Assembly (NCBI GenBank): GCA_963705375.1
Contig: OY970071.1
Coordinates: 180,001-212,000 of the forward strand
Origin: Candidatus Saccharimonadota bacterium
GTDB taxonomy: Archaea > Micrarchaeota > Micrarchaeia > Micrarchaeales > Micrarchaeaceae
Direction of reading: 5' to 3'
Length of the DNA: 32,000 nt
Shown: positions 9,383-28,000 of the stretch, piece by piece
How positions within the stretch are numbered: position 1 is the stretch's first letter
Layout of the letters: each line of letters opens with the position of its first letter
The notes under the pieces: model-generated
What the model saw: only the letters and a program-made list of their open reading frames with translations
Database searches by the model: none
Told to the model about the DNA's origin: nothing
Made by a program: the position numbers and the translations under genes

Positions 9383-12037
9383 TTACAGGTTCTTGCATAT
9401 CTTGTAGAAGAACACTTTTCCCATGTCGACAAGCAGCAGGTACGTGATGGTCATCAGCACCAGCAGAGACCAGTAGCCAATTGGCAGCGGCACGAAGCCT
9501 AGGAAGCTCCCGAACGACGTTAGAGGCAAGAGCGTACCAAAGGCGACCAGCGCCAGCGTGAGCAGCACCACCCACTTGCCTGGCTTGCTCGAGAAGAAAG
9601 GTACCTTCCGCGTCCTTATAACAAATATTATCAGCACCTCGGTCCAGAAAGATTCGACGAACCAGCCGCTCTGGAAGATTCCCGCAGCAATCTTCAGTTG
9701 TTGCGGATTGGCGAGATTGAGGTGCATCGGGGCTATGAATATGAAAAGCATTATGCCAAAGGTGAGGAAGTCGTAGACCGAGCTGAACGGACCGAAAAAC
9801 AGCGTGTACTTCCGCACAAAGTTTATGTCCCATTTCTTCGGCTTCTTTATGAACTCCTGGTCGACGTTGTCAGTTGGCAGCGTCATGTTCGATGTGTCAT
9901 AGAGCACGTTCATGAAGAGTATCTGCACAGGAAGCATAGGCAGAAACGGAAGGAATATGGACGCAGTCGCGGCGCTGAACATGTTGCCGAAGTTAGAGCT
10001 TGTTCCCATCAGTATGTACTTAAGGGTGTTCTCGAAGGTCTTCCTTCCTTCCTGTATGCCGTTTGCAAGCACCATCAGGTCCTTTTCCAACAACACGATG
10101 TCAGCGGCGTCCTTCGAAACGTCGACCGCAGTGTCCACGGAAATGCCGACATCAGCCTCGTACAGTGCAGGCGCGTCGTTCACGCCGTCGCCCATGAAGC
10201 CGACGACGTGCTCATTCTCCTTCAATGCCTTTATAACGTCAAGCTTCTGCTGAGGGGTTATCCTTGCGAATATGGTGGTCTCTTCGGCCGCTTGCTTCAA
10301 CTGAACCCAGCTCATCTTCGCCATGTCCGATCCGCGGACAACACGTTTCACGCGTATTTTCAGCTCCTCGCAGATCTTCTTCGCGACGAGTTCGTTGTCG
10401 CCAGTGAGTATCTTCACATCGACGCCCATCTGGTTCAGCATTTCGACCGCGTCGTGCGCACCGCTTTTTGGCAGGTCAGTGAACACCAGCAAACCAAGGA
10501 AGGTGAGCCCTGCCTCGTCACCGGTACTATGGTTCTTGTGTTCTGAGGTTTCCTTGTATGCGACTGCCAGCACCCTGTAGCCCGCTTCGGAAAACTTGTT
10601 AAGTTCTGCTTCAATCTGCTTTGTCGCATGCGAAAAGTTCTCCATTTTGCCTCCGATTTCAGCATATTGGCATTTCGGAAACAACGACTCCGGAGCGCCT
10701 TTTGTGATGAAGATGTGCTCGTCGCCCCTCCTGACCGCAACAGACATCATCCGTCTCTGGTAATCGAACGGAACCTCATCAATTCTTTTGTACGCTTTCA
10801 GGCCGTCTTGGAGCATGTTGTCAATAGAATACTTCCATATTGCGGCATCCATTGCATTTCCTTTGGCACCCTCTAGGCTTGATGCAGAATTGCAGAGTGT
10901 CGAGTAATCCACTATCTTGGTGTCTCTTACGTCGTTGAGCAGCCAGTACTCCCTCATTGTTATGTTGCCGTCGGTGAGAGTACCCGTCTTATCCGTGCAC
11001 AGGACGTCCATGTTTCCGAAGTCCTCAATTGACACGAGCCGCTTCACGACAACTTTCTTCTCTGCCATCCTGCCTGCACCATGCGACAGGCTTATGGTCA
11101 CAATGGCGGGCATGAGCTCAGGCACGAGGCCCACAGCAACAGCAAGAGAGAAAAGCAGAGAATCGAAGAACGGGTGCCCTATGAGGGTGTTCAAGACGAA
11201 TATGGCAACTACCAGCGCACCGGTCAGCGTCATCAGCATGTTGCCGTACGCCTTTATCCCTTTCTGGAACTCTGTCGGAGGGTGCGGCCTTGCAAGGCTT
11301 CCGGCTATCGCGCCGAATTCGGTATACTTTCCTGTCGCGACCACTACGCCCTTGCCGCTTCCATGGTCTATGCTGGTGCCCATGAAGAGATAGTTGCTAA
11401 GCTCATGAGGCGTCGGCTGTTCAGAATGCACTCTGCCAGTCTGCTTGTCGACAGGAAATGCCTCTCCTGTAAGGTTCGCCTCGTTCGCCTGCATCTCCTT
11501 CGAACTGAGTATCCTCAAGTCTGCAGGCACGATACTCCCGATGTAGACAGAGACAATGTCTCCAGGCACAAGCTCCTCGGCGTTGATCTCCAGCTCCTTG
11601 CCGTTCCTTATTACGATGGCCCTTGTCGAGACCTTGTGCTGCAGCGTCTCGACAGTCGCCTCAGCCTTGTACTCGTTATAGAACCCGAGCACCACCGCGA
11701 GCACGATCATTAAAAGTATTACTGCAGACTGGTCCAATTCGCCAAGGAAACCTGTGATTACCGCACAGAGCACCAATATGACAAATATGGAGTTGTTGAA
11801 CTGCCTGAGAAAGACCTTCATCTTGCTTAGGCTCTTGCCAGGCAGCAGATTGCGGCCGTAGGACTTCAGCCTTTTTTCTGCCTCTTCTTCGGAAAGCCCG
11901 TGTTCGTAGGTGTCCAGAGACTTGCAGACATCCTCGTTGCTCAAGGACCAGTAATCCTTACGTGATGCCGTACTATAGGTGGTGGTTTTCATTTTCCATC
12001 CCAAGTTATCAAGCAGGCTCCTGGTGTATGTCGACAC
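9383..12037 (-). CDS. mgtA: Magnesium-translocating P-type ATPase (MgtA type)
   Basis: Phosphorylation site CTDKTGTLT, TGDN, MGDGVNDAPAL. The MgtA-specific segment NVLYDTSNMTLPTDNVDQEFIKKPKKW compares with E. coli NLLYDVSQVAIPFDNVD...KPQRW (from memory). An alternative start is at 11992 (MKTTTYS). Confidence 0.9.
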   Translation of the reverse strand: MSTYTRSLLDNLGWKMKTTTYSTASRKDYWSLSNEDVCKSLDTYEHGLSEEEAEKRLKSYGRNLLPGKSLSKMKVFLRQFNNSIFVILVLCAVITGFLGELDQSAVILLMIVLAVVLGFYNEYKAEATVETLQHKVSTRAIVIRNGKELEINAEELVPGDIVSVYIGSIVPADLRILSSKEMQANEANLTGEAFPVDKQTGRVHSEQPTPHELSNYLFMGTSIDHGSGKGVVVATGKYTEFGAIAGSLARPHPPTEFQKGIKAYGNMLMTLTGALVVAIFVLNTLIGHPFFDSLLFSLAVAVGLVPELMPAIVTISLSHGAGRMAEKKVVVKRLVSIEDFGNMDVLCTDKTGTLTDGNITMREYWLLNDVRDTKIVDYSTLCNSASSLEGAKGNAMDAAIWKYSIDNMLQDGLKAYKRIDEVPFDYQRRMMSVAVRRGDEHIFITKGAPESLFPKCQYAEIGGKMENFSHATKQIEAELNKFSEAGYRVLAVAYKETSEHKNHSTGDEAGLTFLGLLVFTDLPKSGAHDAVEMLNQMGVDVKILTGDNELVAKKICEELKIRVKRVVRGSDMAKMSWVQLKQAAEETTIFARITPQQKLDVIKALKENEHVVGFMGDGVNDAPALYEADVGISVDTAVDVSKDAADIVLLEKDLMVLANGIQEGRKTFENTLKYILMGTSSNFGNMFSAATASIFLPFLPMLPVQILFMNVLYDTSNMTLPTDNVDQEFIKKPKKWDINFVRKYTLFFGPFSSVYDFLTFGIMLFIFIAPMHLNLANPQQLKIAAGIFQSGWFVESFWTEVLIIFVIRTRKVPFFSSKPGKWVVLLTLALVAFGTLLPLTSFGSFLGFVPLPIGYWSLLVLMTITYLLLVDMGKVFFYKICKNL

Positions 12038-12779
12038 GTTCCATTCTCGGGAAACGGTTCTTTATCTTGATCTCGAGCTTGCTTACGATGTCGTGCGCCT
12101 TGTTTATGCTCATATTTGGGTCGAAATAGCATTTCATGACAAGATGCTGGTTGCCCGCTATGCTCCTGATCGAAACGACTTGGGCTTCCTTGATCTCAGG
12201 GAAGCTTTCTGCCATGTCCTCTATCATCGAGCTCAGCTCCAGCGGCGTGTCTGCCATTTCTTTTGAAACCAATTCAGACACAGGCTCCATGTGGACGGAT
12301 ATGTCCCCGATGTTCTTCACGCTTCTCCTGAGCTTCGCCTCGATCTTGTCCGCTATGGAATGGGCATCCCTTATGCTTATATTGTCGCTCACTTCGAGGT
12401 GCATGTCGATGCAAGTCTTCCCATCTATCTGCTGGATGTGCACGTCGTGAACGCCCCTTGTGCCAGGCACCCTGTCCGCGATTTCCTTAACGGTTTCCCA
12501 TAGGTTGCCGCCAGCACCCTTGAACGGTTCTGTGTGCACAGTCACTGTCGAATCGGGGATTATCTTCTTGGTCACCTCCTCGACCTCTGATGCGATCTGG
12601 TGCACCTCGTCAAAGCTCAAATCGCTGTCCAACAGGACGTGCATCGTCACGGCATACCGCCTTCCGGTCATCCGCACATCGATGTCGTGGCAGCCCCTCA
12701 CTGCCTTGAGAGCCTCGACACGGGCCTTGATCCTCTTGGCGATATCCTTCTCAGAACGTTCTACTAGTGGCAAAGACAT
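12009..12779 (-). CDS. Stand-alone protein of three tandem cation-diffusion-facilitator cytoplasmic (ZT_dimer-like) domains, with no transmembrane domain
   Basis: Three ~85-aa units each follow the CDF C-terminal-domain pattern and end in H-x-E-P: (1) VRGCHDIDVRMTGRRYAVTMHVLLD...EVHQIA...VTVHTEPF; (2) TRGVHDVHIQQIDGKTCIDMHLEV...DAHSIADKIE...ISVHMEPV; (3) IKEAQVVSIRSIAGNQHLVMKCYFD...KAHDIVSKLE...VDIHQEPA. There is an SD-like AAGAGGT 6-8 nt upstream of the ATG. The stop overlaps the mgtA long-form start by 29 nt. Confidence 0.75.
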   Translation of the reverse strand: MSLPLVERSEKDIAKRIKARVEALKAVRGCHDIDVRMTGRRYAVTMHVLLDSDLSFDEVHQIASEVEEVTKKIIPDSTVTVHTEPFKGAGGNLWETVKEIADRVPGTRGVHDVHIQQIDGKTCIDMHLEVSDNISIRDAHSIADKIEAKLRRSVKNIGDISVHMEPVSELVSKEMADTPLELSSMIEDMAESFPEIKEAQVVSIRSIAGNQHLVMKCYFDPNMSINKAHDIVSKLEIKIKNRFPRMERVDIHQEPA

Positions 12780-13135
12780 ACAATTACCTCTTGTTTATTT
12801 TGTCTTAAAGAGAATTGATAAACAGATGCATGACAGATAAAACTACCCAATACGGGAAGGGGTAGTCTAGAAGTAATATCTAAAGAATCAGATGCGCTGC
12901 TGCGCAATGGACTTCTGTCTGCACCAGTCTTGGTCCAAGATCCGATATGTTTCATTATTTTTGCTGCCCTCAGTGCTTGCCTTATGCTCTGCTTCTCCCG
13001 AGCGCGCATACCTAGGTACCAAACCCTTAAAAGAGTTTCTGCTAAGCAGGAATGATTGTAGCAGCTGCCGGAACGTTTCTGCACGGAACCGGCGCATGCT
13101 CAACGAAAGTCAACTCCGAGCCGTAGAATCAAAGA

Positions 13136-13381
13136 TTATTTCTGACCGCAGTTGCAGTTGCAACCACCACGCATCCTGCCTCCGCACAGCACAGCGAGCA
13201 TTATCAACGCAGCAAACCACGTCGTGATGCTGTATGCTATGTTAAGCCCAAACAGCGCGTCTAAAGCCCATATGAAAGCCAGTGGAACTAGCGCTACGAG
13301 CACCAGTGCTGCAATCACGATGATAGGTATGGCCCACATCGGAGGCATGCGATTTTTCTTTATAGGCATCTTTACACCCAT
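13136..13381 (-). CDS. Small 2-TM membrane protein with a Cys/Gly-rich C-terminal tail
   Basis: 81 aa: MGVKMPIKKNRMPPMWAIPIIVIAALVLVALVPLAFIW...WFAALIMLAVLCGGRMRGGCNCNCGQK. Hydrophobic helices and a positive N-terminus, but no homolog recognised. Confidence 0.45.
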   Translation of the reverse strand: MGVKMPIKKNRMPPMWAIPIIVIAALVLVALVPLAFIWALDALFGLNIAYSITTWFAALIMLAVLCGGRMRGGCNCNCGQK

Positions 13382-13908
13382 TTAGAATAAAGACGTCAAG
13401 CTTATAAACTGAACGTCCTGCGCACCATGAAGTAAGAAACTGAAGCTAGAAAGTGCACCAGGATGATCCAGGCATACCATCGACGCGACACGAAATAACA
13501 CAAAATGCATATATATCTATTCCAGCACACACACGCGGTAAGTGATACTGTGCACATGAATAATAAAACGGACCATAAGCAAACGAATCAAGACGAGCAT
13601 AATGAAATAATGCCAGCCCCGCAGCGTAGGACGGGCTCTCTCGATGGCATAGCCTACTTAAAGCGGCAAGAAGACCAGGAACGAAAAGACAAGGACAAGG
13701 AGGATGAAGGCTCGGATGAAGATATCGTGCTGCCATAGGCTGTGATATCAAAAGCACGCATTCTGCAGAGAACACAGACTTCACCCACCTTGAATTGCTA
13801 AAAAGACACGGAGCGTGAGCGCACTTTGATTTAGCAGACACGCACGTATACAGATAAGATAGTGGTGCTTTGCATTTCAGCAAAAATGACTGACGCAGAC
13901 TGCCGTAA

Positions 13909-13926
13909 GCAAAATGTATAAATATC
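13909..13926 (+). promoter_or_regulatory. BRE/TATA-like element upstream of the multi-HTH gene
   Basis: gcaaaa-tgtataaatatc, with tataaata at 13917-13924. An in-frame GTG at 13948 sits about 27 nt downstream of the box centre (leaderless geometry). The first ATG is at 14086. Confidence 0.35.
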
Positions 13927-14085
13927 TTGAAAAATTGCAGCATTCGCGTGAGAACGCATTCACACAGCGATGATGCAGGTCCCGTCTTCCACCATGATGG
14001 TTGTACGTCAGACATTAGGTTGCGTACCGACTCTTCCATTAATGCGCGCGAAGGCACACATAATCCGCACAGCCTCTGCGAGGAG

Positions 14086-16044
14086 ATGAAATGGCTCTTC
14101 GAGTCGAAACATCTAGACATAGACGAAGTGGCACATAAATCCAAAGTGAGCCGAAGTACAATCTACAATGTTCTAAACGGCACCATTCCACACCGGCAGA
14201 TACTTTACGCACTAGCTTGCGCAATGGATCTGGATGAAGAGGAAATTAAGCACGTGCTAGGGCTTGGCGGATATGCTACGGAGCGCGGCAACACTCTAGG
14301 AGAAAGACTGAAGTGGTTCTTGGAAATTGAAGGGATAACAGAACAAAAGCTGAGTGAAGACGCGGGCATTAACCGACGCGCCATAGCCAGGGTCATCCAC
14401 CACAATGTCGTGCCATACAAAAGCACCGTCCTCGCGCTGGCCGCTGCCATGAAACTTGGTGATGATGAAAAGAATGAGATGTTGGAACTTGCCGGCTATG
14501 CTGCTGAGAAAAGATGCACGTTGGGGGGCGAGCTGGAAAGACTTTCGATGCAGAAACATCTCACTAAAAAAGACTTGAGCGAACGCTCTGGATTGGGTCT
14601 GAGCACAATATACGATGTTCTTAACGATGCAGTGGCACCTCTGCAGTTAACAGTCCTAAAGATAATCGACGCTATCGGGCTTAGCGAGGAGGAAAAGCGG
14701 AGCGTCCTGGAATTGGGCAACTACGTTGAGCAAAGAGGCACGTTGGGCGGAGAGTTGAAAAGACAGGCGATGGAGAAAAAGCTGACGAAGGACCAATTGA
14801 GTGAGCTTTTTGGCGTTCATGAAGATACCATGAACCACATTTTCGCCAATGAAACTGTTCCTAAGTTCGAAACGCTTTTTGCGCTGACGTCGGCCATGAA
14901 AATAGAGGGCACAACTCAGAGATACATTTACAAACTTGCAGGATATGATCTGTGCACATTAGGAGGTGAACTGAGGTTGCTTGCCGCACAGAGAGGGCTT
15001 GCAAAGGACAATCTCTCAGCCCTCACAGGCATAAAGATACGAAAGATACGCGCGATATTCCTGAATTCGGTCATGCCGAAATTTGAGGACATTTCTGCGT
15101 TGGTCTCTGCCATGAAACTTGATGGTGCCGCGCATAGGTATATAGATAATCTTGCAGGACGCGGTACGTGCACATTAGGATGCGAACTGCATATGCTTGC
15201 AGCAGAGAGAGGTTTCACCGAAGACGCTCTGGGAGATTCGGCCGCGATAGGCAGAGACACTGTGAGGGGGATTCTCCGCGATGAGATAGTGCCCAAGTTC
15301 GAGGACATTTTTGGGCTGGTCTCGGCGATGAAACTAGAAGATATGGAGCTGAGGTACGTTTACAAGCTTGCAGGATACGATCTGTTCACACTAGGGGGAG
15401 AACTGAGGCTGTTTGCTGCAGAGAGAGGATTTTCAGAGGATGCGTTGGTGGCGCTTTCGGGCGTTGTTCATCGTAGGTTAAACGCGATCTTCCATAATGA
15501 GGCAGCACCGTCCACATGGGACCTCCTAAAAATAGCCAACAGCCTCGAGCTTGGCGACGCTGAAATGAGCTATGTATTAAAACTTGCAGGAATTAGCACA
15601 GAGAGAAGAAGCACGTTAGGTGAAGAGCTGGAGAGATTGGCCATACTGGGACGGTTAGACAAAAACATGTTGAGTGCGACTGCAAAGGTTGGTCGCAACA
15701 CATTAGACGGCATCCTTCACAACGAGACCACGCCATCCCTAGAGGCCCTCACAAGAATAGCGAACGCAATGAATCTAGAGTATGAGAATAGGGAGTATGT
15801 ATTAGAGCTGGTAGGTGGTGCAGAGCGGAGCGAAACGCCGGGCGGAGAGCTTGAGCGGCTCATGTACCTGAAAGGCATGACACAAGCGACGCTGTGCAAG
15901 GACTCTGGTGTGCACCGCACTTTCATAATTGAAGCACTCCGTAACAAAAAGGCAATAGGGGACAAGACAGCCCGAAAGCTCATCGGTGCACTTCACCTTG
16001 AAGAGGAAGACCTGGAATACGTATACAAGCTGTTGGGTTATGAC
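14086..16044 (+). repeat. Nine in-frame tandem coding repeats (207-225 nt each) encoding the HTH modules
   Basis: Unit boundaries, set by the recurring T(L/P)G(G/E)(E/R)L: 14086, 14293, 14518, 14740, 14956, 15172, 15388, 15613, 15835. The units are diverged at the DNA level (an old duplication, not an assembly artefact). Units 4-6 share PKFE(T/D)(L/I)xxLxSAMK(I/L). Confidence 0.8.
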
Positions 16045-16698
16045 GTTGCGCGCATAGAAAAGATGCTGCGCAAAGAAGAAGAGACAGTTGCTTGCGTCAA
16101 GAAGAAAAGCATAAGCGAGAGACTGAATGACATGGCAGACACACTTAATGGCGCAGGAATACCTGTTACAGAAGAGGCAAGGAACAAAGCCGCAGAATAC
16201 GTCCAAAAATGCGTTAACGACGGTTTCATTAGAGGGAGCAGGGCATCTGCCAACGTGGCAGCAGTGGCACTGTACGCATCATGCAGGAATGCAGACGTCG
16301 TAGTGGTCCTTGAAGACATTACGCAGGCGTTGGGACTCAAGCACGACGCAGTCCACAACACCTATGAAGCTATGCGAAGTGAGCTCGGGATTGCGGCAAA
16401 ACCCCTTGACACTGCGAGCTTTGTGGAGTACTACCTTAGCAAGCTTGCACGCAGAGACGTTCTAGATGACGCACTGAACCTGCTGAATGACCACGCAGGG
16501 TCAATGTTCTCAGGTAAGGACCAGAGGAAAATCGCAGCGACAGTGATCTGCACTGCAAGCATAAGGTCAGACGCAGGGCACATAGATCCTGCGGATCTAA
16601 TGAAAGAATGCGGCCTCGTTACGTCACCTAACGTCAAGCTTGAAACACTATTGGACATGTGCAACAAGCTAGAGAAGAGGATTCGGGAAGGAAATTAG
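14086..16698 (+). CDS. Chimeric regulator candidate with nine tandem Cro/C1 (XRE)-type HTH modules fused to a TFB/TFIIB two-cyclin core (no Zn ribbon, no B-reader)
   Basis: Nine 70-75-aa units each fit the pattern TLGGEL+.L....G.....L....G+....+..+.......P....+..+..A+.L......Y+..LAGY. The C-terminus (16111-16695) fits the TFB cyclin repeats: ARNKAAEYVQKCVNDGFIRGSRASANVAAVALYASCRNADVVVVLEDITQALGLKHDAVHNTYEAMRSELGI, then FVEYYLSKL...ALNLLN...FSGKDQRKIAATVICTASIRSDAGHIDPADLMKECGLV. The 5' end is uncertain: ATG 14086 is preferred, the alternatives are GTG 13948 or TTG 13927 (ORF track). Confidence 0.8.
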   Translation: MKWLFESKHLDIDEVAHKSKVSRSTIYNVLNGTIPHRQILYALACAMDLDEEEIKHVLGLGGYATERGNTLGERLKWFLEIEGITEQKLSEDAGINRRAIARVIHHNVVPYKSTVLALAAAMKLGDDEKNEMLELAGYAAEKRCTLGGELERLSMQKHLTKKDLSERSGLGLSTIYDVLNDAVAPLQLTVLKIIDAIGLSEEEKRSVLELGNYVEQRGTLGGELKRQAMEKKLTKDQLSELFGVHEDTMNHIFANETVPKFETLFALTSAMKIEGTTQRYIYKLAGYDLCTLGGELRLLAAQRGLAKDNLSALTGIKIRKIRAIFLNSVMPKFEDISALVSAMKLDGAAHRYIDNLAGRGTCTLGCELHMLAAERGFTEDALGDSAAIGRDTVRGILRDEIVPKFEDIFGLVSAMKLEDMELRYVYKLAGYDLFTLGGELRLFAAERGFSEDALVALSGVVHRRLNAIFHNEAAPSTWDLLKIANSLELGDAEMSYVLKLAGISTERRSTLGEELERLAILGRLDKNMLSATAKVGRNTLDGILHNETTPSLEALTRIANAMNLEYENREYVLELVGGAERSETPGGELERLMYLKGMTQATLCKDSGVHRTFIIEALRNKKAIGDKTARKLIGALHLEEEDLEYVYKLLGYDVARIEKMLRKEEETVACVKKKSISERLNDMADTLNGAGIPVTEEARNKAAEYVQKCVNDGFIRGSRASANVAAVALYASCRNADVVVVLEDITQALGLKHDAVHNTYEAMRSELGIAAKPLDTASFVEYYLSKLARRDVLDDALNLLNDHAGSMFSGKDQRKIAATVICTASIRSDAGHIDPADLMKECGLVTSPNVKLETLLDMCNKLEKRIREGN

Positions 16699-16849
16699 GC
16701 GGCAAGACGGCCATCTTCACCCTGTTCTTTAGCAGAACTACAACGCAGATATACATAATTACTTTACAAAAACGCAGACATACCCAAATAAATTTACACA
16801 AATAATACTGCTTTAAGTATCTGATGTTTCTCATCTTCACCGTGACATT

Positions 16850-17209
16850 ATGGACAAGTTAAACAAGACAACTGAGGAAAGAGCGCAGAAAATAACAGAG
16901 TACATGGAAGCAGCCAAACCGTTACTTGAGAGCAACATAGTCGTTCATAGAGATTTCGGCATATGGGTCAAAAAGCACATAGATTACGAACAAATAATTA
17001 ATGGCACTCTTTTTGTGCTGGCAGAACTCAAGGACGATACAAGTCCAGATAAAATTCTAAAGAACATGCATTTGTATGGTTATGACATAAAAAACATGGA
17101 CGCGATAGTCTCTGCCGTGAGCAGCTTCTCACCTAAAGGAGAGGCGTTCAGCAGATACTATTGGGAAATGAGAGTGGAAGACATCAACAAAAATCACTTG
17201 CGTAAGTGA
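16850..17209 (+). CDS. Hypothetical protein (119 aa)
   Basis: Clean ORF with an ATG start and the A/T-rich sequence tttaagtatc about 35 nt upstream. No recognised motif. Confidence 0.55.
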   Translation: MDKLNKTTEERAQKITEYMEAAKPLLESNIVVHRDFGIWVKKHIDYEQIINGTLFVLAELKDDTSPDKILKNMHLYGYDIKNMDAIVSAVSSFSPKGEAFSRYYWEMRVEDINKNHLRK

Positions 17210-17401
17210 GGTCATCGCCCAGAAACAAGCAGCACACACTTCACGGATGCAAATCAGCATGCTTTTGCTTTATTGAAATTGCACGCGTATTGGTAACGCT
17301 AGCTAATCCTTTCAATGTTGCCAGATACTTCCTCAACCGCAGGGCACCAAGCATACGCATAAAAAAGGACACTCACAAGGCAGGAACAATATAAAGTGCA
17401 G

Positions 17402-18208
17402 ATGATGAAAGAAGGCAAAAACAAGACAATATTCATAACAGGCTGCAGGGGAGGTATCGGCAGATATTCGGCAATAACTCTTGCGAAAAGAGGGCACAGA
17501 GTGATTGCGACCACTCACACTTCCGCTTCTGCAAAAGAAATAAATGCGCTGGCCGCAGCTCAAAAATTGAATATAGAGTCTTTCAAGTTGGACGTAACAG
17601 TGCCCAAAGACAGAGACAGGATACGTGACTATGACATCGACGTCTTGATAAACAACGCCGGAATAGGAGAATCCGGACCGTTGGCCGAAATCAACGTTGA
17701 CAGAGTAAGGAACAATTTCGAAGTGAACGTCTTTGGTCCATTGGAATTGACACAGCTAGCATTAAAAAAGATGATGAAAAAGGACAGCGGGACTGTAATC
17801 TTCGTAAGCTCTTTGATAGGACGCATCGCATTCCCATTCCTTGGCTCGTATTCCATGACCAAATTCTCCGTTTCGTGCGAGGCCGATGTCCTTCGGCAGG
17901 AATTGTACAGGATCACAAAGAACGTCAACGTTTCGGTAGTGGAGCTTGGAGCGTATCATACTGGATTCAACCAGAGGATGCTTGCACGAAAATACGAATG
18001 GCTGAGAAAACGCTCGTATTTCAATGAAAAGATCAGAGAAATAAAGATGCGTGAAGAGAAGTTCTTCAGCACGATGGAATCGGAATCAGTACGAACAGCA
18101 GTCAATCAAATAGTTAAAGCGGCGGAATCGAGCAGACCAAGGTTCAGGTACGTGGCACCATTCTGGCAGGGGACCCTTGTGCAGCTTGGAAGAGCATTAG
18201 GCAAGTAG
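17402..18208 (+). CDS. Short-chain dehydrogenase/reductase (SDR) family oxidoreductase
   Basis: Cofactor motif TGCRGGIGR, NNAG (LINNAGIG), catalytic S...YSMTK. The ATG at 17402 is preferred over the GTG at 17396 from the ORF track. Confidence 0.85.
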   Translation: MMKEGKNKTIFITGCRGGIGRYSAITLAKRGHRVIATTHTSASAKEINALAAAQKLNIESFKLDVTVPKDRDRIRDYDIDVLINNAGIGESGPLAEINVDRVRNNFEVNVFGPLELTQLALKKMMKKDSGTVIFVSSLIGRIAFPFLGSYSMTKFSVSCEADVLRQELYRITKNVNVSVVELGAYHTGFNQRMLARKYEWLRKRSYFNEKIREIKMREEKFFSTMESESVRTAVNQIVKAAESSRPRFRYVAPFWQGTLVQLGRALGK

Positions 18209-18291
18209 CCACACTTCAAAAATCCAGAAACACCAGGTCTTTTTACTATATCCTAAAAGTCACTCTTGAGATTACAAAGAAAAAGAAGGCC

Positions 18292-18309
18292 GTTGCCCTG
18301 TCGGGCAAC
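18292..18309. terminator. Hairpin between convergent genes (SDR / Gly-rich membrane protein)
   Basis: gttgccc-tgtc-gggcaac forms a perfect 7-bp GC-rich stem with a 4-nt loop, in the 135-bp convergent spacer. A-rich 5' flank (aaagaaaaagaa). Confidence 0.35.
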
Positions 18310-18343
18310 AGACCGAATATCGAAATTGAAGAGGCAGATCTCA

Positions 18344-18658
18344 TCACATTGCTTCTAACTTGACGAATCTCACGATGACGAGATTGTAGATCAGAGCAAA
18401 TATCATGCCGCCTATCAATCCACCAACGGCAGAAGCGATTATCGTCACCACAGCACCGATGATGCCTATAGCGCCACCCAGCAAGCCACCCACGGCTGCC
18501 CCAAGAACGAGAGCAACTACCGCATACAGGACGCCTGCTATTAGCCCAGACACTGCAAAGACCTGCGCAGCAGATCCGTATGAGAGCTGATTTATCTTAG
18601 TTCCCATTACACCACCTGCGTAGACTGCCAAGGCAGTGTTTAAATCTCTTATGGGCAC
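18344..18658 (-). CDS. Small Gly/Ala-rich (glycine-zipper-like) membrane protein
   Basis: 104 aa with GxxxG-rich helices: GLIAGVLYAVVALVLGAAVGGLLGGAIGIIGAVVTIIASAVGGLIGGMIFALIY. An alternative start is M18. Confidence 0.5.
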   Translation of the reverse strand: MPIRDLNTALAVYAGGVMGTKINQLSYGSAAQVFAVSGLIAGVLYAVVALVLGAAVGGLLGGAIGIIGAVVTIIASAVGGLIGGMIFALIYNLVIVRFVKLEAM

Positions 18659-18836
18659 AGAGCAGCAAGAGGGCCAGGAGATAATTCAGGCAACTTGCGC
18701 AGGACATGACTTTTCTTGCGCGTTCGATTCGACGCGGACCGTAGCCAATAAATACCTAGAAGCCAATTCAAACTGTGATAAAAGAGCTAAGGCACTGCAG
18801 CCTTATATTCTTTCTTTTGCATATCGAAGTGCTTTT

Positions 18837-20270
18837 ATGAAAAGGATCGGAGACTTCCTTTGGGAACTTGGAAAAGAGGAGCGGGAAGGCATGAATGTCC
18901 CTGTACGCGTTTACGCTAATGAGAAGCTCTTCTCATCGATCCAAAAGGACAGGACGCTGATGCAGGCAAAGAACGCGGCCGCACTTCCAGGAATAGTGCG
19001 GAACATGCTCGTGATGCCGGACGGGCATGAAGGATACGGCTTCCCGGTAGGAGGCGTAGCTGCTTTCGATGCTGACAGCGGCATAATCTCTCCTGGCGCG
19101 ATCGGATTTGACATAAACTGCGGGGTACGCCTAATAAAATCCAACATAACTGTGGGTGATGCAAAGTCCAGACTGCCGCAGCTCATGGATCGCCTGTTCA
19201 AGAACGTTCCAAGCGGTGTCGGCAGCGAGATAAAGCTTGGATTCTCTCACAGCGACCTAGACAGGATTGCCACCGAAGGCGTCGAGTATGTTGTTAAGAA
19301 GGGTTATGGATTCAAAGACGATGTTGAAAGAATAGAGGAAAATGGTTGCATCGCTGGCGCGGATCCGGACAAGGTCAGCAACCTGGCGAAAGGCCGCGGC
19401 GTGAAGCAGATAGGCACCCTTGGTGCTGGCAACCATTTCCTGGAAGTGCAGAAAGTCGAACAGATATTCGACGAAAAGGCCGCAAAGGCATTCGGCCTTG
19501 AGGAAAACATGGTCGTGGTGATGGTGCACAGCGGTTCGAGAGGCTACGGCCACCAGATATGCAGTGACTACCTTCGCATTCTTACGGAGTATCAGCGCAG
19601 GCACAACATAAGGCTCCCGGATCCTGAGCTGGCATACGCGCGCATAGGCGACAAGGAAGCAGAGGAGTATCTGGCTTGCATGCGCTGTGCCGTGAACTTC
19701 GCTTTCACTAACAGGCAGGTGATGACACACCTAATACGCAAAAGCTTTTCGGAGGTGTTCGGCAAGAGCGCCGATGCGCTTGACATGCAGCTAATCTATG
19801 ATGTCGCGCACAACATCGCAAAATTGGAAGAGCACACGATAGACGGAAAGAGGATGAAGCTGTACGTGCACAGGAAAGGCGCAACAAGGGCTTTCTCGCC
19901 AGGAAGGGCAGAGGTCCCGCAGGTGTACAGGAGTGCAGGCCAGCCTGTGATCATACCAGGAAGCATGGGCACCGCAAGCTACGTGCTTGCTGGCAGAGAG
20001 GAAGCGATGCTCGAGACTTTCGGCTCGTCATGCCATGGCTCTGGAAGACTGATGTCGCGCCACCAGGCGGTGCGTGACATTCCTGTCGCAAAGACACTTG
20101 CCGATCTGAAAAGCAAGGGCGTAGAGTTCAGGGTCAGGGACAGAAAACTGATAAGCGAAGAGGCAGAGTGGGCGTACAAGAGCGTTGACGATGTTGTCGC
20201 AAGCATAGCAGGCGCAAAGATATCAAACATAGTCGCAAGGCTTGTGCCTCTCGGAGTGGCGAAGGGCTGA
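18837..20270 (+). CDS. rtcB: RNA-splicing ligase RtcB (3'-phosphate/5'-hydroxyl RNA ligase)
   Basis: MPDGHEGYGFPVGGV, GFDINCGVRL, GAGNHFLEVQ, HSGSRGYGHQ, IPGSMG, SSCHGSGR. The ATG at 18837 gives 477 aa (typical RtcB length) and lies about 30 nt downstream of ttatatt (18803-18809). The ORF-track start at 18636 adds 67 non-conserved residues that overlap the divergent gene. Confidence 0.92.
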   Translation: MKRIGDFLWELGKEEREGMNVPVRVYANEKLFSSIQKDRTLMQAKNAAALPGIVRNMLVMPDGHEGYGFPVGGVAAFDADSGIISPGAIGFDINCGVRLIKSNITVGDAKSRLPQLMDRLFKNVPSGVGSEIKLGFSHSDLDRIATEGVEYVVKKGYGFKDDVERIEENGCIAGADPDKVSNLAKGRGVKQIGTLGAGNHFLEVQKVEQIFDEKAAKAFGLEENMVVVMVHSGSRGYGHQICSDYLRILTEYQRRHNIRLPDPELAYARIGDKEAEEYLACMRCAVNFAFTNRQVMTHLIRKSFSEVFGKSADALDMQLIYDVAHNIAKLEEHTIDGKRMKLYVHRKGATRAFSPGRAEVPQVYRSAGQPVIIPGSMGTASYVLAGREEAMLETFGSSCHGSGRLMSRHQAVRDIPVAKTLADLKSKGVEFRVRDRKLISEEAEWAYKSVDDVVASIAGAKISNIVARLVPLGVAKG

Positions 20271-20381
20271 TCCCTATTTTTCTTCAGATGTAGATTTGCA
20301 CCCAGATTCGTAAGTTCCGCGTCGTCTCAGTAATAGCGCACAATTCTGTTTGCTGACTTGTTGCATGACACGCCGCTTGCC

Positions 20382-21314
20382 TCAATTATCTGTTTCGTTA
20401 AACAGTGCCCTCTTAGTCGAATCAAACGGATGGTCCTTGCAGAACGTTACCGCCAGCTTGCCCTCTTGTGTGAACCCCACATCATCCACCATTGACGCTA
20501 CACCAAGCGACTTCTGTTTTGACAGTGCGTCAATGCCAATATAAATTTCTCTTTTGAACCGGTCTCCCCAAACACCATGAATAGCATCTGTAGCCACGTA
20601 AAAGCCCCACTGCGGGTTCAGTGTGCAGAGCTGTTCCGTTGCAATTTGAGTGCTCATGTCCATTATTCGCCCGATAGTGGTTTCCGCTTCATAACCGACA
20701 GCAGCCATCGATGTTACATAATCTTCATTCCATTCGCCTCTTGCCTGCCGCAATAGTGCACAGGATAGAAGCCCTGCAAGCGTTTCTTCGAGGAATGGTC
20801 TATCCCAGGCGAGGTCCATAGTTTCAAACACATTCGATTGAGCGCAATCCAGAAATGAACCCCTTATGTCTGTTTCATTTTTTGATAATTTCCTGACTAC
20901 GAACCTATCAGGTATAACAAGCATTCCTTGCAGCGCAAATAAACCCATTGCCGGTGGCGATACGAATTGCGATCCATACCCGAATCTCTCATTTACTTCA
21001 ATTTGGTAATGATTCAAAGTGGGCAGGAATTCTTCAGGTGCCACTAGCTTCAGCGCGGGTAGTTCTCCTATTTCTGCGCCATATGTTTCCTGGACTTGTG
21101 GAATTAGCGCATAAACCATATTTTGTAGGCTTGAGTCATCAAGCACCACGGGCTCTTGCGGTTCCGTCCACTTCTTGCCTCTCAGCACCAGAAGTTTGCA
21201 TGCTTCCTGGTCGTTCGGCAACTGACAATCCCAGTTTACTGGTAAACTGCAATCCGCACTCCTGAGCAGGTCCTTGTGTGTCTGCCAGACCTCTTGAATA
21301 GACTTGGCCATCAT
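20382..21314 (-). CDS. Hypothetical protein (310 aa, no recognised domain)
   Basis: Long clean ORF of balanced composition, convergent with rtcB and divergent from the giant gene. Confidence 0.6.
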   Translation of the reverse strand: MMAKSIQEVWQTHKDLLRSADCSLPVNWDCQLPNDQEACKLLVLRGKKWTEPQEPVVLDDSSLQNMVYALIPQVQETYGAEIGELPALKLVAPEEFLPTLNHYQIEVNERFGYGSQFVSPPAMGLFALQGMLVIPDRFVVRKLSKNETDIRGSFLDCAQSNVFETMDLAWDRPFLEETLAGLLSCALLRQARGEWNEDYVTSMAAVGYEAETTIGRIMDMSTQIATEQLCTLNPQWGFYVATDAIHGVWGDRFKREIYIGIDALSKQKSLGVASMVDDVGFTQEGKLAVTFCKDHPFDSTKRALFNETDN

Positions 21315-22025
21315 TTCATCAACAGCTAGCCATTCCTTTCGTTCAGATATTTATGCGTGTCTTTTCGTTTGACTCTGGGACAAAAGTCCTTCTCACTCCT
21401 AGATAAGAACCAGAATAGAAAAGGCTACTTGCTGTTTTAAGATGCCTTCTGGGTTCACTCGGTCTAAACGACCTTTTTCTATCGTTCTTTGACGACAGAA
21501 CGGACATTATTACTGATCCGCCTTGCTCTGGTCAATATAATTTGGATGCAAAACGATAAAGATTTTGGCAGAGATAATATAGAAGACCTGAAAAGGTAGA
21601 GTGCCAAAATAATGGTTGACTTATGTCCCAGACTCTTTTCGTTTCATGTTGTTTGTGAAACTTTGTTTGATTGTGAAGGGCCTATTGCCTTCTTAATAAA
21701 AAAGTGGAAAAAGGTTAGCAAAACAAGCAATCCTACACTTCTAATACTATCTTGGTAATTTAAGGAATCTGAAAACTAGAAAGATATAAATATCTCCTGG
21801 AATGGATACTTCCTTGCGGCTTACTGTGGGGGTACATTAACAGTGTGTCGCTAATGTCAAACTTGCGTCAGTAGTATGCATGTTTGCCGACTGTAGTAGG
21901 CTTGGATAGCATGGAGAATAACTATACGTTAGCTGCAACGGCTTTGTTGCCGGTTTTAGGTGTTATGGTGCCTGTGGCATCTGCATCCGTGTCGGCCATA
22001 TGCATGTTCAAAATAGTGTGATACC

Positions 22026-25000
22026 ATGGCGACGCGCACCCGCAAGTTCAATCCGATGCTTCTTCTGATATCAGTGGTCCTGCTGCTTAAAGTTTGCCCC
22101 TACGTAGGGGCATGGACCAGCACAGGCGCCACCGTAACCTGGCAGGGGCACAGTTATCCAGTATTTGATGCGGGCATCGACGCCGGGTGCACATCCACAA
22201 TATACAACAATAATGCGAATTCTAATTCGAAAGTCACTTGCAACGAAGGTCCTTGGTATAATCCCGGTTCCGTATCTGTTACATTAACCTATGCCGGCAC
22301 TGGGCCAGATTTTTATTGCGACAATAGCTCTTGCGCTACCCAGAGCAGCTTACCCCAAGATTGGAAGTATGTCGATGCGTATAAAATAACAGGCACTTCA
22401 GGAGGATTCTCACCAGCTTCATGGTCCTCTTCAGATAATACCTCTGAACTTTATTTCATATTCAAGTACAATCCTGGCACTCTGGGAATAGGTGCGGGGG
22501 GCTTATCCGCAAGATTCTACACCACCACAATCCCACAGGGTCCTGCATCCACCAGCACCTCATTGGTCGCAAGCAACTCGACATATTATCCACAATACAA
22601 CAATTACTACGCGAATTATGGCACGCCCATAACAATCACAGCAACAGTCTCTCCCGCGCCGTCAAATGGAGATACAGTAACGTTCTATGATTCTTGGAAC
22701 TATGGCACGGCCTCCGTGCTGGGCACGGCCACAATACAGAACGGCGTCGCGAAATTCACAACCAGAGCATTACTTGGCGAATGGCACGGCATTACTGCAA
22801 ACTTTTCAGGAGATTCGTCCTATAAGACGAGCACAAGTCCTGCGCTCGGAATAACAATGTATAAGGTCAATTCCACGACATCTCTCTCTTCAAGTTCCAA
22901 CCCGTCGACATACACTTCTTCAATAACGTTCACAGCCACAGTAACACCGACACCTCCGAACGGCGAAACCGTAACGTTCTATGACAGCGGAACACAGATT
23001 GGCACAGGCACTACATCAGGCGGCGTCGTGACATTCACAACGACCACGTTAACACCTGGCACGCATTCGATCACCGCAAGATATCCAGATGACTATTATA
23101 GTCTATATACAAGCACAAGTCCTGCACTTTCACAAACAGTCAACAAGGAACCGACCGCAATAAGCCTCACCTCAAACAGTAACCCATCGACCTATGGCAC
23201 TTCGGTGATTTTCACAGCAACCGTGTCTCCATCCGTTCCGAACGGCGAGACAGTAACATTCTATAACGGAGGAACGCAGATCGGCATAGGAACAACATCA
23301 GGCAGCACCGCGACATTCACCGCGACAACGCTCGCTGCAGGCACATATTCCATAACTGCGACATACTCCGGAGATTCCAATTATATTGGCAGCACAAGCT
23401 CCGCAGTTTCCCAAGTAGTCAGCAAGGTGTCGACCACGACATCTCTCTCTTCAAGTCCCAACCCCGCAATACAGGGCACATCTGTGACATTCACCGCGAC
23501 AGTGTCGCCATCAGTCCCGAACGGTGAGACTGTAACATTCTATAGCATTAACAACGGAACTCAGATTGGAACAGGCACCACGTCAGGAAGTATCGCAACC
23601 TTCACCACTAACACACTTACAGCAGGCACCCGTTCATTCACCGCAACATACTCTGGCAATTCTAATTATGCAAGCAGTACAAGTTCTGCAGTTTCGCAAG
23701 CAGTCAATAAGGTGTCGACCACGACATCTCTCTCCTCGAGTTTCAATCCTTCAATACATGGTGCCTCTGTGACATTCACCGCAACAGTGTCGCCATCGGT
23801 TCCGAACGGCGAGACCGTGACGTTCTATGACAATTCTGTACAGATTGGCACAGGCACCACCACCTCTAGCAGTGTCGCAACTTTCACCACTAATGCACTT
23901 ACAGCAGGCACTCATTCGATCACAGCAACATATTACGGCGATGCACACTTCCTAGGCAGCAGCTCTACTCTATCCCAAACAATAAACGCTGGAACACCAA
24001 CAGCAACAAGCCTCACCTCGAGCATTAACCCATCGACCCATGGCACTTCAGTGACATTCACAGCAACAGTGTCCCCATCAGTTCCGAACGGCGAGACCGT
24101 GACGTTCTATAACGGCGGGACACAGATCGGCACCGGAACGACATCAGGCAGCGTTGTGACATTCACCACGGCCGTGCTAGCCGTAGGAACAGACCCCATA
24201 ACTGCGACATACTCCGGAGATGTCAATTTCTTCGGCAGCACAAGCTCTGCAGTTTCGCAGACGGTCAACAAGCAGCCAACCATAATCTCGCTAAATTCGA
24301 ATGCGACCCAATCGCTTTACGGCTCTGCAGCCACATTCACTGCGAGGATATCGACACCGATTATTCCGAACGGCGAGACGGTGACATTCTATGACGGCAC
24401 CAACCAGATAGGTACCAGCTTCACATCAAACAGCACCGCAATACTGACAACAGACGGACTTGCGGCAGGTACTCATTCGATAACTGCCACATATTCTGGC
24501 GATTCCAACTTTACAAGCAGCACGAGCTCTGCAGTCTCGCAGGTCGTCACAAAACTATCCGCATCTACATATACCCCATCTACATGGGTATTGCAAAGCA
24601 ACACGCTTTCTGTTGGCGAACAGGGTCAGAGCTGTGTAAAAGCAAACAGTTACATCTACTGCATGGGAGGTCTAAATTATCCCACTACGGTCCAATCCGC
24701 ACAAATATTATCGAACGGCGGGACCTCAGCATGGGCATCTTCCAGCAACACGCTTAGTTATTCAAGCGCATTCCATAGCTGCGTTTCAGCAAACGGTTAT
24801 GTGTACTGCATGGGCGGCGAGTATTCCCCTGCCGGAGTAGAATACGCGAAGATATTGGGCAATGGACAGCTCGGACAATGGCATGCCCAAAACGCGAGCG
24901 CACAGCTTAGCGCTGGCGTACAGGGCCTGAGCTGCGTCACAGTCAATAGCTACATCTACTGCATGGGAGGTTACAATGCCAGCACAAGCACTTATCTTGG

Positions 25001-28000
25001 AAATATCCAGTATGCGCAGATATCAAGTGGCGGCGGAGCTACAGGACCATGGCATTTGCAAAGTGCCAATACGCTTGTAGCGGGACTTGCTTATGGATCA
25101 TGCGTAACAGCAAACAATTACATCTACTGCATGGGAGGGGTAGGGTATCCTACCACAATAGAATATGCGCCAATAGTCGCAAACGGTGTAGTAGGTTCAT
25201 GGCAGACCATGAATCCCTCTAACATTTATCTTCCAGTTTCACTATATATGGGCAGCTGTGCTGCCGCTGCCGGCTCTATCTACTGCATGGGAGGCCAAAA
25301 TGCGAACGCTGTACAATATGCACGAATATTGAATGGTTCAGGAACATCTGCATGGACATTGCAAAATGCGAGCATGCAGCTCGCAGTAGGTGCAATGTAT
25401 CATAGCTGCATAGCGGCAAACAATTACCTCTACTGCATGGGCGACAATAACAACAGGAACTCTATACAGTACACGCCCCTAGTGACTCCAACAACCACAT
25501 CAGTAAACTCAAACAATAATCCTTCGACTTACGGAGCGTCAGTAGCGCTCACCGCGGCAGTATTTCCTGCAGTCCCAAACGGCCAGACAGTAACATTCTA
25601 TGACAATTCCATACAGATCGGCACAGCTACCACCTCAAACAGCAATGCAACTATAGCTTCAAGTACGCTTGCAATAGGCACCCACTCAATAACGGCCAGA
25701 TATTCAGGCTACACGAACGCCAAAGGAAGCATAAGCGCAGTCTTGTCTCAGATAGTCAAGACGCCAACCACCACAAGCCTTACATCAAGTGCAAACCCGT
25801 CAGCTTACGGCAATTCGATAACATTCACAGCCACAGTGTCGCCATCGATACCAAATGGCGAGACGGTGACGTTCTACGACAGCGCCAACCAGATCGGAAC
25901 AGGCACAACAGCAGGCAGCGTCGCAACATTCTCAACAAACGCACTCGCCACAGGCACTCATCAGATAACCGCGACGTACTCTGGAGATTCGAACTTCGTG
26001 ACAAGCACAAGTTCCGCAGTCTCGCAGGTCGTAAATACAAAAGCGACCACAACCTCTCTTGCTTCAAGTGCCAACCCGTCAACATATGGCAATTCAGTGA
26101 CATTCACAGCCACCATATCTCCATCCGTGCCAAACGGAGAGACCGTTACATTCTATGATAATGGCGCAACGATCGGCACGAGCACAACGTTTGCAAGTGT
26201 CGCCACTTTCGCAACCAATGCGTTCACAGCAGGCACTCATCCGATAACCGCGACGTACGCTGGAGATTCGAACTTCGTGACAAGCACAAGTTCCGCAGTC
26301 TCGCAGGTCGTCAACAAGAAGCCGACCGCAACGTCTCTTGCTTCAAGTGCAAATCCGACTACATACGGCAATTCAATCACATTCACCGCCACGGTGTCGC
26401 CATCAGTCCCGAACGGCGAGACAGTGACGTTCTACGACAGCTCGAATCAGATAGGCACAGGCACAACTTCTGCGAATGTCGCAACATTCACGACTAACGC
26501 GTTTGCAGCGGGCACCCATCCGATAACCGCAACATATTCTGGCGATTCCAATTTTGTTGGCAGCACAAGTTCTGCAGTATCCCAAATTGTCAACAAGAAG
26601 TCAACAACAAGCACTCTAATTTCAGGCGCCAACCCATCAACATACGGCAATTCGATCACATTCACAGCCACAGTGTCGCCATCAATACCGAACGGCGAGA
26701 CAGTGACGTTCTATGACAGCGCCAACCAGATAGGAACAGGCACAACGGCAGGCAGTGTCGCAACCTTCTCAACAAACACACTAGTCACAGGCACTCACCC
26801 AGTAACCGCAACGTACTCTGGAGATTCAAACTTCGTGACAAGCACAAGTTCCGCAGTCTCTCAGGTCGTCAACACAAGGTCGACATCAACAGCCCTCACA
26901 TCAAACTCAAACCCGTCAACATACACCGCTTCAATCACATTCACAGCCACAGTGTCGCCATCGGTTCCAAACGGTGAGACAGTAACGTTCTATGACAGCG
27001 CCAATCAGATCGGCACAGGCACAACATCAGGCAGCGTTGCAACCTTCTCAACAAACGCGCTCACGGCAGGCACTCATCCAATAACCGCAACGTACTCTGG
27101 AGATTCAAACTTCGTGACAAGCACAAGTTCCGCAGTCTCGCAGGTCGTAAACACAAAGTCGACAGCAACAGCCCTCACATCAAACTCCAACCCATCAACA
27201 TACACCGCTTCAATCACATTCACAGCCACAGTGTCGCCATCGGTTCCAAACGGTGAGACAGTAACGTTCTATGACAGCGCCAATCAGATCGGCACAGGCA
27301 CAACATCAGGCAGCGTTGCAACCTTATCAACAAACGCGCTCACGGCAGGCACTCATCCAATAACCGCAACATACTCTGGCGATTCCAACTTCATTACAAG
27401 CACAAGTTCCGCAGTCTCTCAGGTCGTAAACACAAAGTCGACAGCAACAGCCCTCACATCAAACTCAAACCCGTCAACATACACATCTTCGATAATGTTC
27501 ACCGCTACGGTATCTCCATCAGTTCCGAACGGAGAGACCGTCACATTCTATGACAATTCTATACAGGTCGGAATAGGAACAACCTCTTCAAGTGTCGCAA
27601 CATTCACGACCAATGCATTTACAGCAGGCACCTATCAGATAACCGCGACATACTCTGGAGATTCGAACTTCGTGACAAGTACAAGTTCCGCAGTCTCGCA
27701 GGTCGTAAACACAAAGTCGACAGCAACAGCCCTCACATCAAACGCCAACCCATCAACATACACTGCTTCAATCACATTCACAGCCACAGTGTCGCCATCG
27801 GTTCCAAACGGTGAGACAGTAACGTTCTATGACAGCGCCAATCAGATCGGCACAGGCACAACATCAGGCAGCGTTGCAACCTTATCAACAAACGCGCTCA
27901 CGGCAGGCACTCATCCAATAACCGCAACATACTCTGGCGATTCCAACTTCATTACAAGCACAAGTTCCGCAGTCTCTCAGGTCGTCAACACAAGGTCTAC

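Follow-up and report, generated by a model that had tools for sequence, protein, structure and literature searches.

Gene regulation in archaea is usually described as the action of bacterial-type repressors and activators on a eukaryote-type basal transcription machinery that consists of separate proteins. On the side of this machinery, the closest described systems to the gene analysed here are archaeal TFB and its eukaryotic counterpart TFIIB. The N-terminal domain of TFB recruits RNA polymerase (RNAP), and a TFB core without this domain forms a ternary complex with the TATA-binding protein (TBP) and DNA efficiently (PMC2602779). The helix-turn-helix (HTH) in the second repeat of the core is the part that reads the TFB recognition element (BRE; PMC4581349), and its consensus is TQ...GVTEVT-RNRYKEL. 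In a stretch of 32,000 nucleotides (nt) from contig OY970071.1 (assembly GCA_963705375.1, positions 180,001 to 212,000 of the forward strand; hereafter the window), we analysed a + strand open reading frame (ORF) at 14086-16698, listed with an ATG at 14086 and a stop codon at 16696-16698. It encodes 870 amino acids (aa), in which nine tandem HTH domains of the Cro/C1 (XRE) type are followed by a TFB-like core. This protein, referred to below as the array-core protein, is a paralogue of TFB whose domain architecture is without precedent.

With the cores of TFB and TFIIB (PF00382; 1AIS, 1D3U, 1VOL), the array-core protein has in common the RG-R and LYA-CR segments and the equivalent of human TFIIB R169, whereas it has no Zn ribbon, B-reader or B-linker, carries about 650 aa of XRE HTH repeats at its N-terminus, and has an acidic core in which the BRE-reading HTH is degenerate and contains a 6-aa insertion. 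Sulfolobus TFB3 is likewise a TFB paralogue in which only part of the factor remains, and it works as a regulator instead of a general factor; it has the Zn ribbon and no C-terminal DNA-binding domain, and it enters complexes of TFB1, TBP and promoter with an activating effect (PMC6101594). The array-core protein is the mirror image of TFB3, with a core and no Zn ribbon where TFB3 has a Zn ribbon and no core. The engineered protein TFBc resembles the array-core protein in being core-only, without the RNAP-recruiting domain, and in this form it makes a TBP/DNA ternary complex (PMC2602779). However, TFBc is artificial and its BRE-reading head is intact, whereas the array-core protein occurs naturally, and its head is degenerate and accompanied by nine additional HTH domains. 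That a TFIIB core tolerates fused extra modules can be seen from Brf1, Brf2, Rrn7/TAF1B and P0026. Brf and Rrn7 keep the Zn ribbon and have gained C-terminal domains, while the array-core protein has no Zn ribbon and an N-terminal array; the N-terminus of P0026 gives no HTH_3 match and is unrelated to the array, and there is no XRE array in Brf, Rrn7 or P0026.

On the side of the bacterial-type regulators, the Cro/C1 repressors CylR2, SinR, DdrO, C.Esp1396I, P22 c2 and 434 Cro share their five-helix fold and the HTH_3 and HTH_31 profiles with the units of the array. These repressors have one HTH per chain and bind palindromes as dimers or tetramers, whereas nine diverged heads are found in a single chain here, and several XRE signature residues (the helix-2 Gln and E-x-G) are missing from the units. 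XRE regulators often have a C-terminal domain that does not bind DNA. To our knowledge, no link between an XRE-type HTH and TBP other than MBF1 has been characterised. MBF1 has a single C-terminal HTH, an N-terminal Zn ribbon and no cyclin folds, and the archaeal MBF1 model (aMBF1, TIGR00270) scored the array-core protein at 10.8 bits against a cut-off of 110 (E 0.32). The array-core protein is not an MBF1 member, and the parallel with MBF1 drawn in a preliminary description of this DNA survives as a conceptual analogy only.

The preliminary description, made from the letters of the sequence, had read nine Cro/C1 modules in one ORF, and this was borne out by the Pfam profiles HTH_3 and HTH_31, by leave-one-out hidden Markov models (HMMs) and by a five-helix structural model. 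The units of the array are as follows.

14086-14292, + strand: HTH unit 1 (aa 1-69), matched by HTH_3 at 1.7e-7 when taken alone and by the leave-one-out HMM at 47.8 bits
14293-14517, + strand: HTH unit 2 (aa 70-144), leave-one-out 67.8 bits, HTH_19 at 1e-4, five-helix model with Foldseek matches to XRE repressors
14518-14739, + strand: HTH unit 3 (aa 145-218), with the best HTH_31 and HTH_26 stretches, leave-one-out 66.4 bits
14740-14955, + strand: HTH unit 4 (aa 219-290), leave-one-out 88.0 bits, 49-50% identity with units 5 and 6
14956-15171, + strand: HTH unit 5 (aa 291-362), the sole clearly basic unit (net charge +5)
15172-15387, + strand: HTH unit 6 (aa 363-434), from the unit alignment and the leave-one-out HMM
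15388-15612, + strand: HTH unit 7 (aa 435-509), from the unit alignment and the leave-one-out HMM
15613-15834, + strand: HTH unit 8 (aa 510-583), from the unit alignment and the leave-one-out HMM
15835-16053, + strand: HTH unit 9 (aa 584-656), leave-one-out 49.6 bits

Each unit is 69-75 aa long. The first starts at aa 1, and the T-L-G-x-E-L motif that was used for cutting the units recurs at the starts of the other eight (aa 70, 145, 219, 291, 363, 435, 510 and 584). The units can be aligned nearly without gaps at pairwise identities of 23-50%, and an HMM built on the other eight recognised every one of them (48-88 bits), which shows that the nine-fold repeat is not a reading artefact. Pfam gave significant matches for the whole protein with HTH_3 (1.3e-38) and HTH_31 (8.7e-35), and when the units were scanned singly, five of the nine were matched by HTH_3 and five of the nine by HTH_31 (E<=1e-3).

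The AlphaFold model of unit 2, for which the nine units served as the alignment, has five helices in a lambda-repressor-like fold, with a predicted local distance difference test (pLDDT) score of 84.8. Foldseek matched it to DdrO, C.Esp1396I, SinR, P22 c2 and 434 Cro at template modelling (TM) scores of 0.67-0.82, and CylR2 was the closest match of the unit by sequence in the PDB; the best structural matches are DNA-binding repressors. The heads are joined by linkers of 6-9 aa. The recognition helix begins with Arg in six of the nine units and has Arg at its second position in unit 7, and along the recognition helices the exposed positions are variable and the core positions conserved. For sequence-specific DNA binding through helix 3 of the units there are only indirect hints.

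The C-terminal part of the protein is made up of the following elements.

16054-16107, + strand: charged linker IEKMLRKEEETVACVKKK (aa 657-674), predicted to be a helix continuous with the first core helix
16108-16386, + strand: TFB cyclin repeat 1 (aa 675-767), from Pfam TFIIB (aa 695-764), NCBIfam and column counts
16411-16695, + strand: TFB cyclin repeat 2 (aa 776-870), from phmmer alignments that reach aa 838-865, AlphaFold helices at 120-213, Foldseek and column counts
16588-16692, + strand: degenerate BRE-reading HTH (aa 835-869), with a 6-aa insertion in the turn at aa 848-853 (nt 16627-16644)

The identification of the C-terminus as a two-cyclin TFB core was upheld by Pfam, NCBIfam and the structural comparison alike. 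Pfam TFIIB was matched at 1.1e-9 in the whole protein and, in two stretches, at 2.3e-11 when aa 657-870 were scanned alone. NCBIfam TFIIB (8.2e-14) was matched by aa 680-829 over profile positions 131-276 of 312, which spans both repeats; the second repeat alone gave no Pfam match. A phmmer search of the C-terminus against 1.84 billion representatives returned 95 matches at E<=1e-3 (best 7e-10), and all of the 34 that were inspected were TFB, TFIIB or Brf, the long ones being intein-containing TFBs or Brf1. Overall, the core is 19-27% identical to TFBs. From the phmmer matches, 55 TFB homologues were taken for the core alignment, the AlphaFold input and the column counts given below. The resulting model has ten helices (pLDDT 91.8), and Foldseek placed it next to the human TFIIB core (1vol_A, TM 0.75) and the Pyrococcus woesei TFB core (1d3u_B, TM 0.72). 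The sequence evidence for a TFB core is independent of this model.

It had also been stated that the Zn ribbon and the B-reader are missing, and this was confirmed. There was no match to Zn_Ribbon_TF (PF08271) in the 870 aa, nor at E<=10 in the longest possible upstream extension, and no CxxC...CxxC pattern was found in the protein sequence. The B-reader and B-linker are absent, as the match to the NCBIfam TFIIB profile does not begin before position 131 and HTH unit 9 sits upstream of the core. At the other end, the TBP-binding domain of BRF1 (PF07741) gave no Pfam match, and the protein ends with the second cyclin repeat. The charged linker, previously put at about 22 aa, is present but is 18 aa long and predicted to be helical, with the AlphaFold helix spanning model residues 2-33. 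Its LRK aligns with the 'LRKWQ' segment in the TFB consensus alignment, and this vestige places the evolutionary break point just N-terminal of the core.

The two cyclin repeats have diverged to different extents. Repeat 1 retains the hallmarks R716, R719, Y730, C733 and R734, the last of which aligns with R169 of human TFIIB and is an Arg in 49 of the 55 homologues; in TFIIB, the R169E mutation abolishes binding to TBP-TATA (PMC6004067). The conserved arginines on the last helix of repeat 1 have been replaced (GR.YR by HNTYE). Repeat 2 retains the fold and the SGK segment and has lost the hallmarks P, Y, T/Q and R-N-R-Y: P (50/55) is Q, Y (53/55) is C, and T and Q (39/55 and 51/55) are D and P, while in the recognition helix of its HTH, R (49/55) is L, N is D, the second R is M and Y is C. 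None of the 55 homologues has residues in the columns of the 6-aa insertion in the turn of this HTH, and the AlphaFold model has a 10-residue loop in place of the expected short turn. The net charge of the core is -5, compared with a median of +9 in the homologues, and an overall shift towards acidic proteins is not seen in the rest of the window.

The terminal HTH-like segment noted earlier is present as two helices, but as a BRE reader it is degenerate. The loss of the HTH hallmarks, the replaced arginines and the acidic charge make binding of BRE or DNA by the core unlikely, which contradicts the earlier assignment of 'TBP, BRE and DNA' as the ligands of the core for all but TBP. Docking on TBP, to judge from the retained R734, is plausible.

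The architecture had been put forward as novel, and no counterpart was met in protein, genome, metagenome, viral or literature searches. In a word-indexed search of 5.8 billion clusters, the full protein matched only itself, and neither the C-terminus alone nor the nine-unit profile matched anything. Apart from the protein itself, the phmmer search with the core gave nothing below 1e-10 among the 1.84 billion representatives, and the matches that were inspected were TFB, TFIIB or Brf. No relative came out of pattern scans in which GTDB species genomes and IMG/VR were covered once and JGI metagenomes twice, and tblastn and unit-HMM searches of 80 Micrarchaeota neighbourhoods of RtcB (1.25 Mb) gave no match and no synteny. 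In the literature, we found no account of the array-core architecture, of tandem XRE arrays or of natural TFB regulators without a Zn ribbon. As far as we found, both the architecture and the nine-fold XRE array occur nowhere else.

Some TFB-like proteins were encountered along the way. The tblastn alignments of the TFBs P0013 and P0071 apparently reached into unit 9, and these were gapped-extension artefacts, as both are ordinary Zn-ribbon TFBs. P0003 and P0007 were considered as the TFB of the host itself and were rejected because they are located on unrelated short contigs. P0026 (L082 1907-3181) has 424 aa, with an N-terminus of about 230 aa without a Zn ribbon followed by a TFB core, and its gene adjoins that of a DUF87 ATPase. 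P0005 and P0014 are core-only TFB-like proteins of about 200 aa with a Met at the start. These proteins and P0026, all of them metagenomic, come nearest to the array-core architecture among the data.

Our tentative reading of the array-core protein, the likeliest of those considered, is that of a TFB-derived regulator, in which the array would target DNA and the core would dock on TBP without recruiting the polymerase, resulting in targeted repression or poising. In an ancestral TFB, the Zn ribbon, the B-reader and most of the B-linker, on which RNAP recruitment and the choice of the start site depend, were replaced by nine diverged XRE HTH domains. The two-cyclin core was retained with its fold and its main TBP-contact arginine, and lost its own DNA-reading surfaces, which are the BRE-reading HTH, conserved basic residues and the positive charge. 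These losses and retentions rest on the sequence and the model, and the steps that follow are ones that we infer. The HTH array could supply the DNA targeting at a long composite site or at several sites, with about one major groove per head, and the cyclin core could dock on the TBP surface that is used by canonical TFB. Without a Zn ribbon and a B-reader, the protein would not be able to recruit RNAP, and the net effect would be a locus-specific competition with canonical TFB, so that promoters with bound TBP would be repressed or poised. A decoy or repressor had been suggested in the preliminary description; its premise holds, as a core-only TFB forms the TBP/DNA complex (PMC2602779), and the mechanism is plausible.

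Several observations weigh against this reading. Most HTH units are slightly acidic (net -1 to -6), with only units 5 and 9 basic, the recognition helices of units 3 and 4 are acidic, and the Q that opens helix 2 and the E-x-G that follows helix 3, both XRE hallmarks, are largely absent. Periodic operator arrays had been proposed as a target, but an operator-like periodic DNA motif was looked for in the 32-kb window and none was seen, the only repeats being coding ones and a two-copy 13-mer described below. In the core, K188 and K189, which contribute to TBP binding by human TFIIB (with mutational evidence for K188; PMC6004067), have their equivalents replaced by H753 and D754. Docking on TBP may for this reason be weakened or lost, with R734 speaking for it and these two positions against it. 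The AlphaFold core model was built on a TFB alignment and is thus biased towards the TFB arrangement. No orthologue that could give comparative support was found, the protein being a singleton with all data from one sample.

In a somewhat unlikely alternative, the cyclin core no longer works with the basal machinery and serves only for oligomerisation or the binding of partners, within an XRE-type regulator or an architectural, DNA-bridging (nucleoid-associated) protein, and the array binds many sites or long tracts. The core is acidic, has lost DNA-contact residues in both repeats and is changed at the K188/K189 equivalents; a C-terminal domain of this kind would not be out of place in an XRE regulator, and nine heads suit multivalent binding or bridging. 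However, the hallmarks of repeat 1, including the TBP-contact Arg, are strictly kept at an overall TFB identity of only 19-27%, which argues for retained selection on a TFB-type interface. The array-core protein could also be a positive, promoter-specific initiation factor, in which the array selects promoters, the core nucleates TBP, and either RNAP is recruited by a protein supplying the Zn ribbon and B-reader in trans or TBP is handed to canonical TFB. Split or truncated TFB paralogues acting in trans do exist, such as TFB3 (PMC6101594), the loss of the BRE-reading head together with the gain of DNA-binding modules fits a move of promoter recognition to the array, and a hand-over of TBP resembles TBP-recruiting activators. 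We consider this improbable, as no Zn-ribbon-only gene adjoins the array-core gene, and the products of orf119 and orf81 have neither a Cys-rich motif nor a family match. Only one Zn-ribbon-like match was seen in the window, in a transglutaminase-like DUF553 protein of 380 aa (3600-4742, + strand), the N-terminal 40 or so residues of which weakly match TFB Zn ribbons (tblastn E 0.025-0.25) and are probably an unrelated Zn ribbon. Canonical TFB, moreover, cannot bind TBP while the fusion fills the TFB site. A sigma-like version, in which the chain of HTH domains would read an extended promoter and the core would assemble TBP and RNAP through a Zn-ribbon partner in trans or by a ribbon-independent route, is in our view very improbable.

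The least probable explanation is that the gene is an artefact or dead, either a chimeric misassembly of an XRE-repeat gene with a TFB fragment or a decaying pseudogene. This could be suspected because the protein is a singleton from one sample with no orthologue found, its second cyclin repeat is strongly diverged and its start codon is uncertain. However, the frame is uninterrupted over 2.6 kb, and between units the synonymous difference is saturated (mean 0.73) while the nonsynonymous difference is 0.47, with dN/dS of 0.17-0.44 where measurable. Accordingly, the units were duplicated long ago, and purifying selection acts on them. As the units are 60-74% identical at the DNA level, a collapse of repeats in the assembly is unlikely, and no repeat, chimera-prone or other, was found flanking the junction of the array and the core. 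The TFB homology extends into the linker with the LRK segment, as expected of an in-frame evolutionary fusion, the diverged repeat is modelled with confidence, and the GC content of the gene equals that of its neighbours. The same 870-aa product is encoded on the 1.2-Mb NCBI contig and on a 30.6-kb Logan assembly of run ERR11594402, although this agreement gives weak independent support since both assemblies are probably from the same reads. Judged from these features, the array-core gene is old and selected, encodes a single polypeptide and is not an assembly artefact.

At the 5' end of the gene, two features lie ahead of the listed ATG.

13917-13924, + strand: TATA-box-like element TATAAATA after an A-rich stretch, a candidate promoter
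13927-14085, + strand: possible N-terminal extension, an open frame rich in S/T/H/D, without a Zn_Ribbon_TF match at E<=10

The frame of the gene is open from 13909 onwards, with in-frame starts at TTG 13927, GTG 13948 and TTG 14020, and the homology of unit 1 begins at 14074, which is 4 aa before the ATG at 14086. The strongest TATA box, the element listed above, is located about 25-30 nt ahead of GTG 13948, and transcription is predicted to begin near 13946-13948. Because of this upstream homology, the open frame and the TATA box, the start codon is uncertain, and the TATA box together with the upstream in-frame starts makes possible an N-terminal tail of 22-53 aa, rich in S/T/H/D and without a Zn ribbon. 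TATA-like boxes are found 20-40 nt 5' of many start codons in the window, for example the starts at 861, 7023, 13381, 16850 and 21314, and no ribosome-binding site was obvious. This suggests that leaderless mRNAs are common in the host genome.

Upstream of the array-core gene, about 700 nt (13382-14085) hold no convincing gene, which is unusual in a compact DPANN genome, and no Rfam family was matched in this gap. An antisense ORF at 13446-14144, rich in Cys, Ser and Leu, was called as a gene of 189 aa in the Logan assembly, and a family search with it gave no match. Decayed extra HTH units or a remnant of a Zn ribbon were found neither upstream nor elsewhere in the window. Downstream, between the stop codon and orf119 (16850-17209), the 13-mer AACGCAGAYATAC occurs in two exact copies at 16742-16754 and 16771-16783, 29 nt apart. 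It was considered as an operator motif and rejected, as it shows no enrichment over the window (with <=2 mismatches allowed, its count was reached in 26 of 100 shuffles).

RtcB is encoded 2 kb downstream and shares 82% identity with its counterpart in a metagenome-assembled genome of uncultured Micrarchaeota, and the best 80 matches of RtcB are nearly all from Micrarchaeota. From these matches, the host is a DPANN archaeon (Micrarchaeota) with a genome of about 1.2 Mb. The neighbours of the array-core gene are housekeeping or uncharacterised genes, which include those for a P-type ATPase, a ZT_dimer protein, a short-chain dehydrogenase/reductase (SDR), RtcB and a giant Ig-repeat protein. With regard to a virus or defence context, the immediate neighbours had no PHROG or PADLOC matches, and the array-core protein itself gave generic HTH matches and a match to a single viral family of TFB-like proteins. 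In the 80 Micrarchaeota relatives, the surroundings of RtcB contain no equivalent of the fusion, orf119, the SDR or orf81, and the gene order around RtcB (12000-21500 of the window) is not conserved.

Other genes in the window were noted in passing. The + strand ORF at 22026-31868 encodes 3280 aa with about 20 Big_3_5 Ig-like domains and matches to Big_7, Ig_7 and Kelch, and is probably a surface or adhesin protein; it contains tandem DNA repeats of 279 nt (10.4 copies, 25778-28674) and 261 nt (7.3 copies, 29455-31369). On the - strand, 12009-12779 encodes a protein of 256 aa with three tandem ZT_dimer (cation-efflux C-terminal) domains and without a membrane domain, and at its 3' end this gene shares 29 nt with the P-type ATPase ORF (9383-12037), the predicted GTG start of which lies in the overlap.

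To summarise, bacterial-type DNA-reading heads have been welded in this gene to the TBP-docking body of TFB, and both the polymerase-recruiting part and the BRE-reading head of TFB itself have been dropped. The gene is a singleton known from one uncultured DPANN genome, so that few conclusions on archaea as a whole can be drawn from it, and it will be of interest mainly to specialists in archaeal transcription. The nine-fold tandem XRE array, which is undescribed as far as we found, invites the question of how DNA is read by an array of this kind. If the sigma-like reading were true, the protein would be a natural case in which promoter recognition has moved from BRE and TATA to a multi-HTH array, and it would give an experimental handle on the proposed relationship between sigma factors and TFB (PMC4581349). 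If the array-core protein does bind TBP, it would represent either the first 'targeted anti-TFB' found in nature or a variant of TFB specific to certain promoters, and in both cases an example of general factors turned into gene-specific regulators. It would then also provide a simple in vitro system for the study of a promoter-bound TFB core without its N-terminus.

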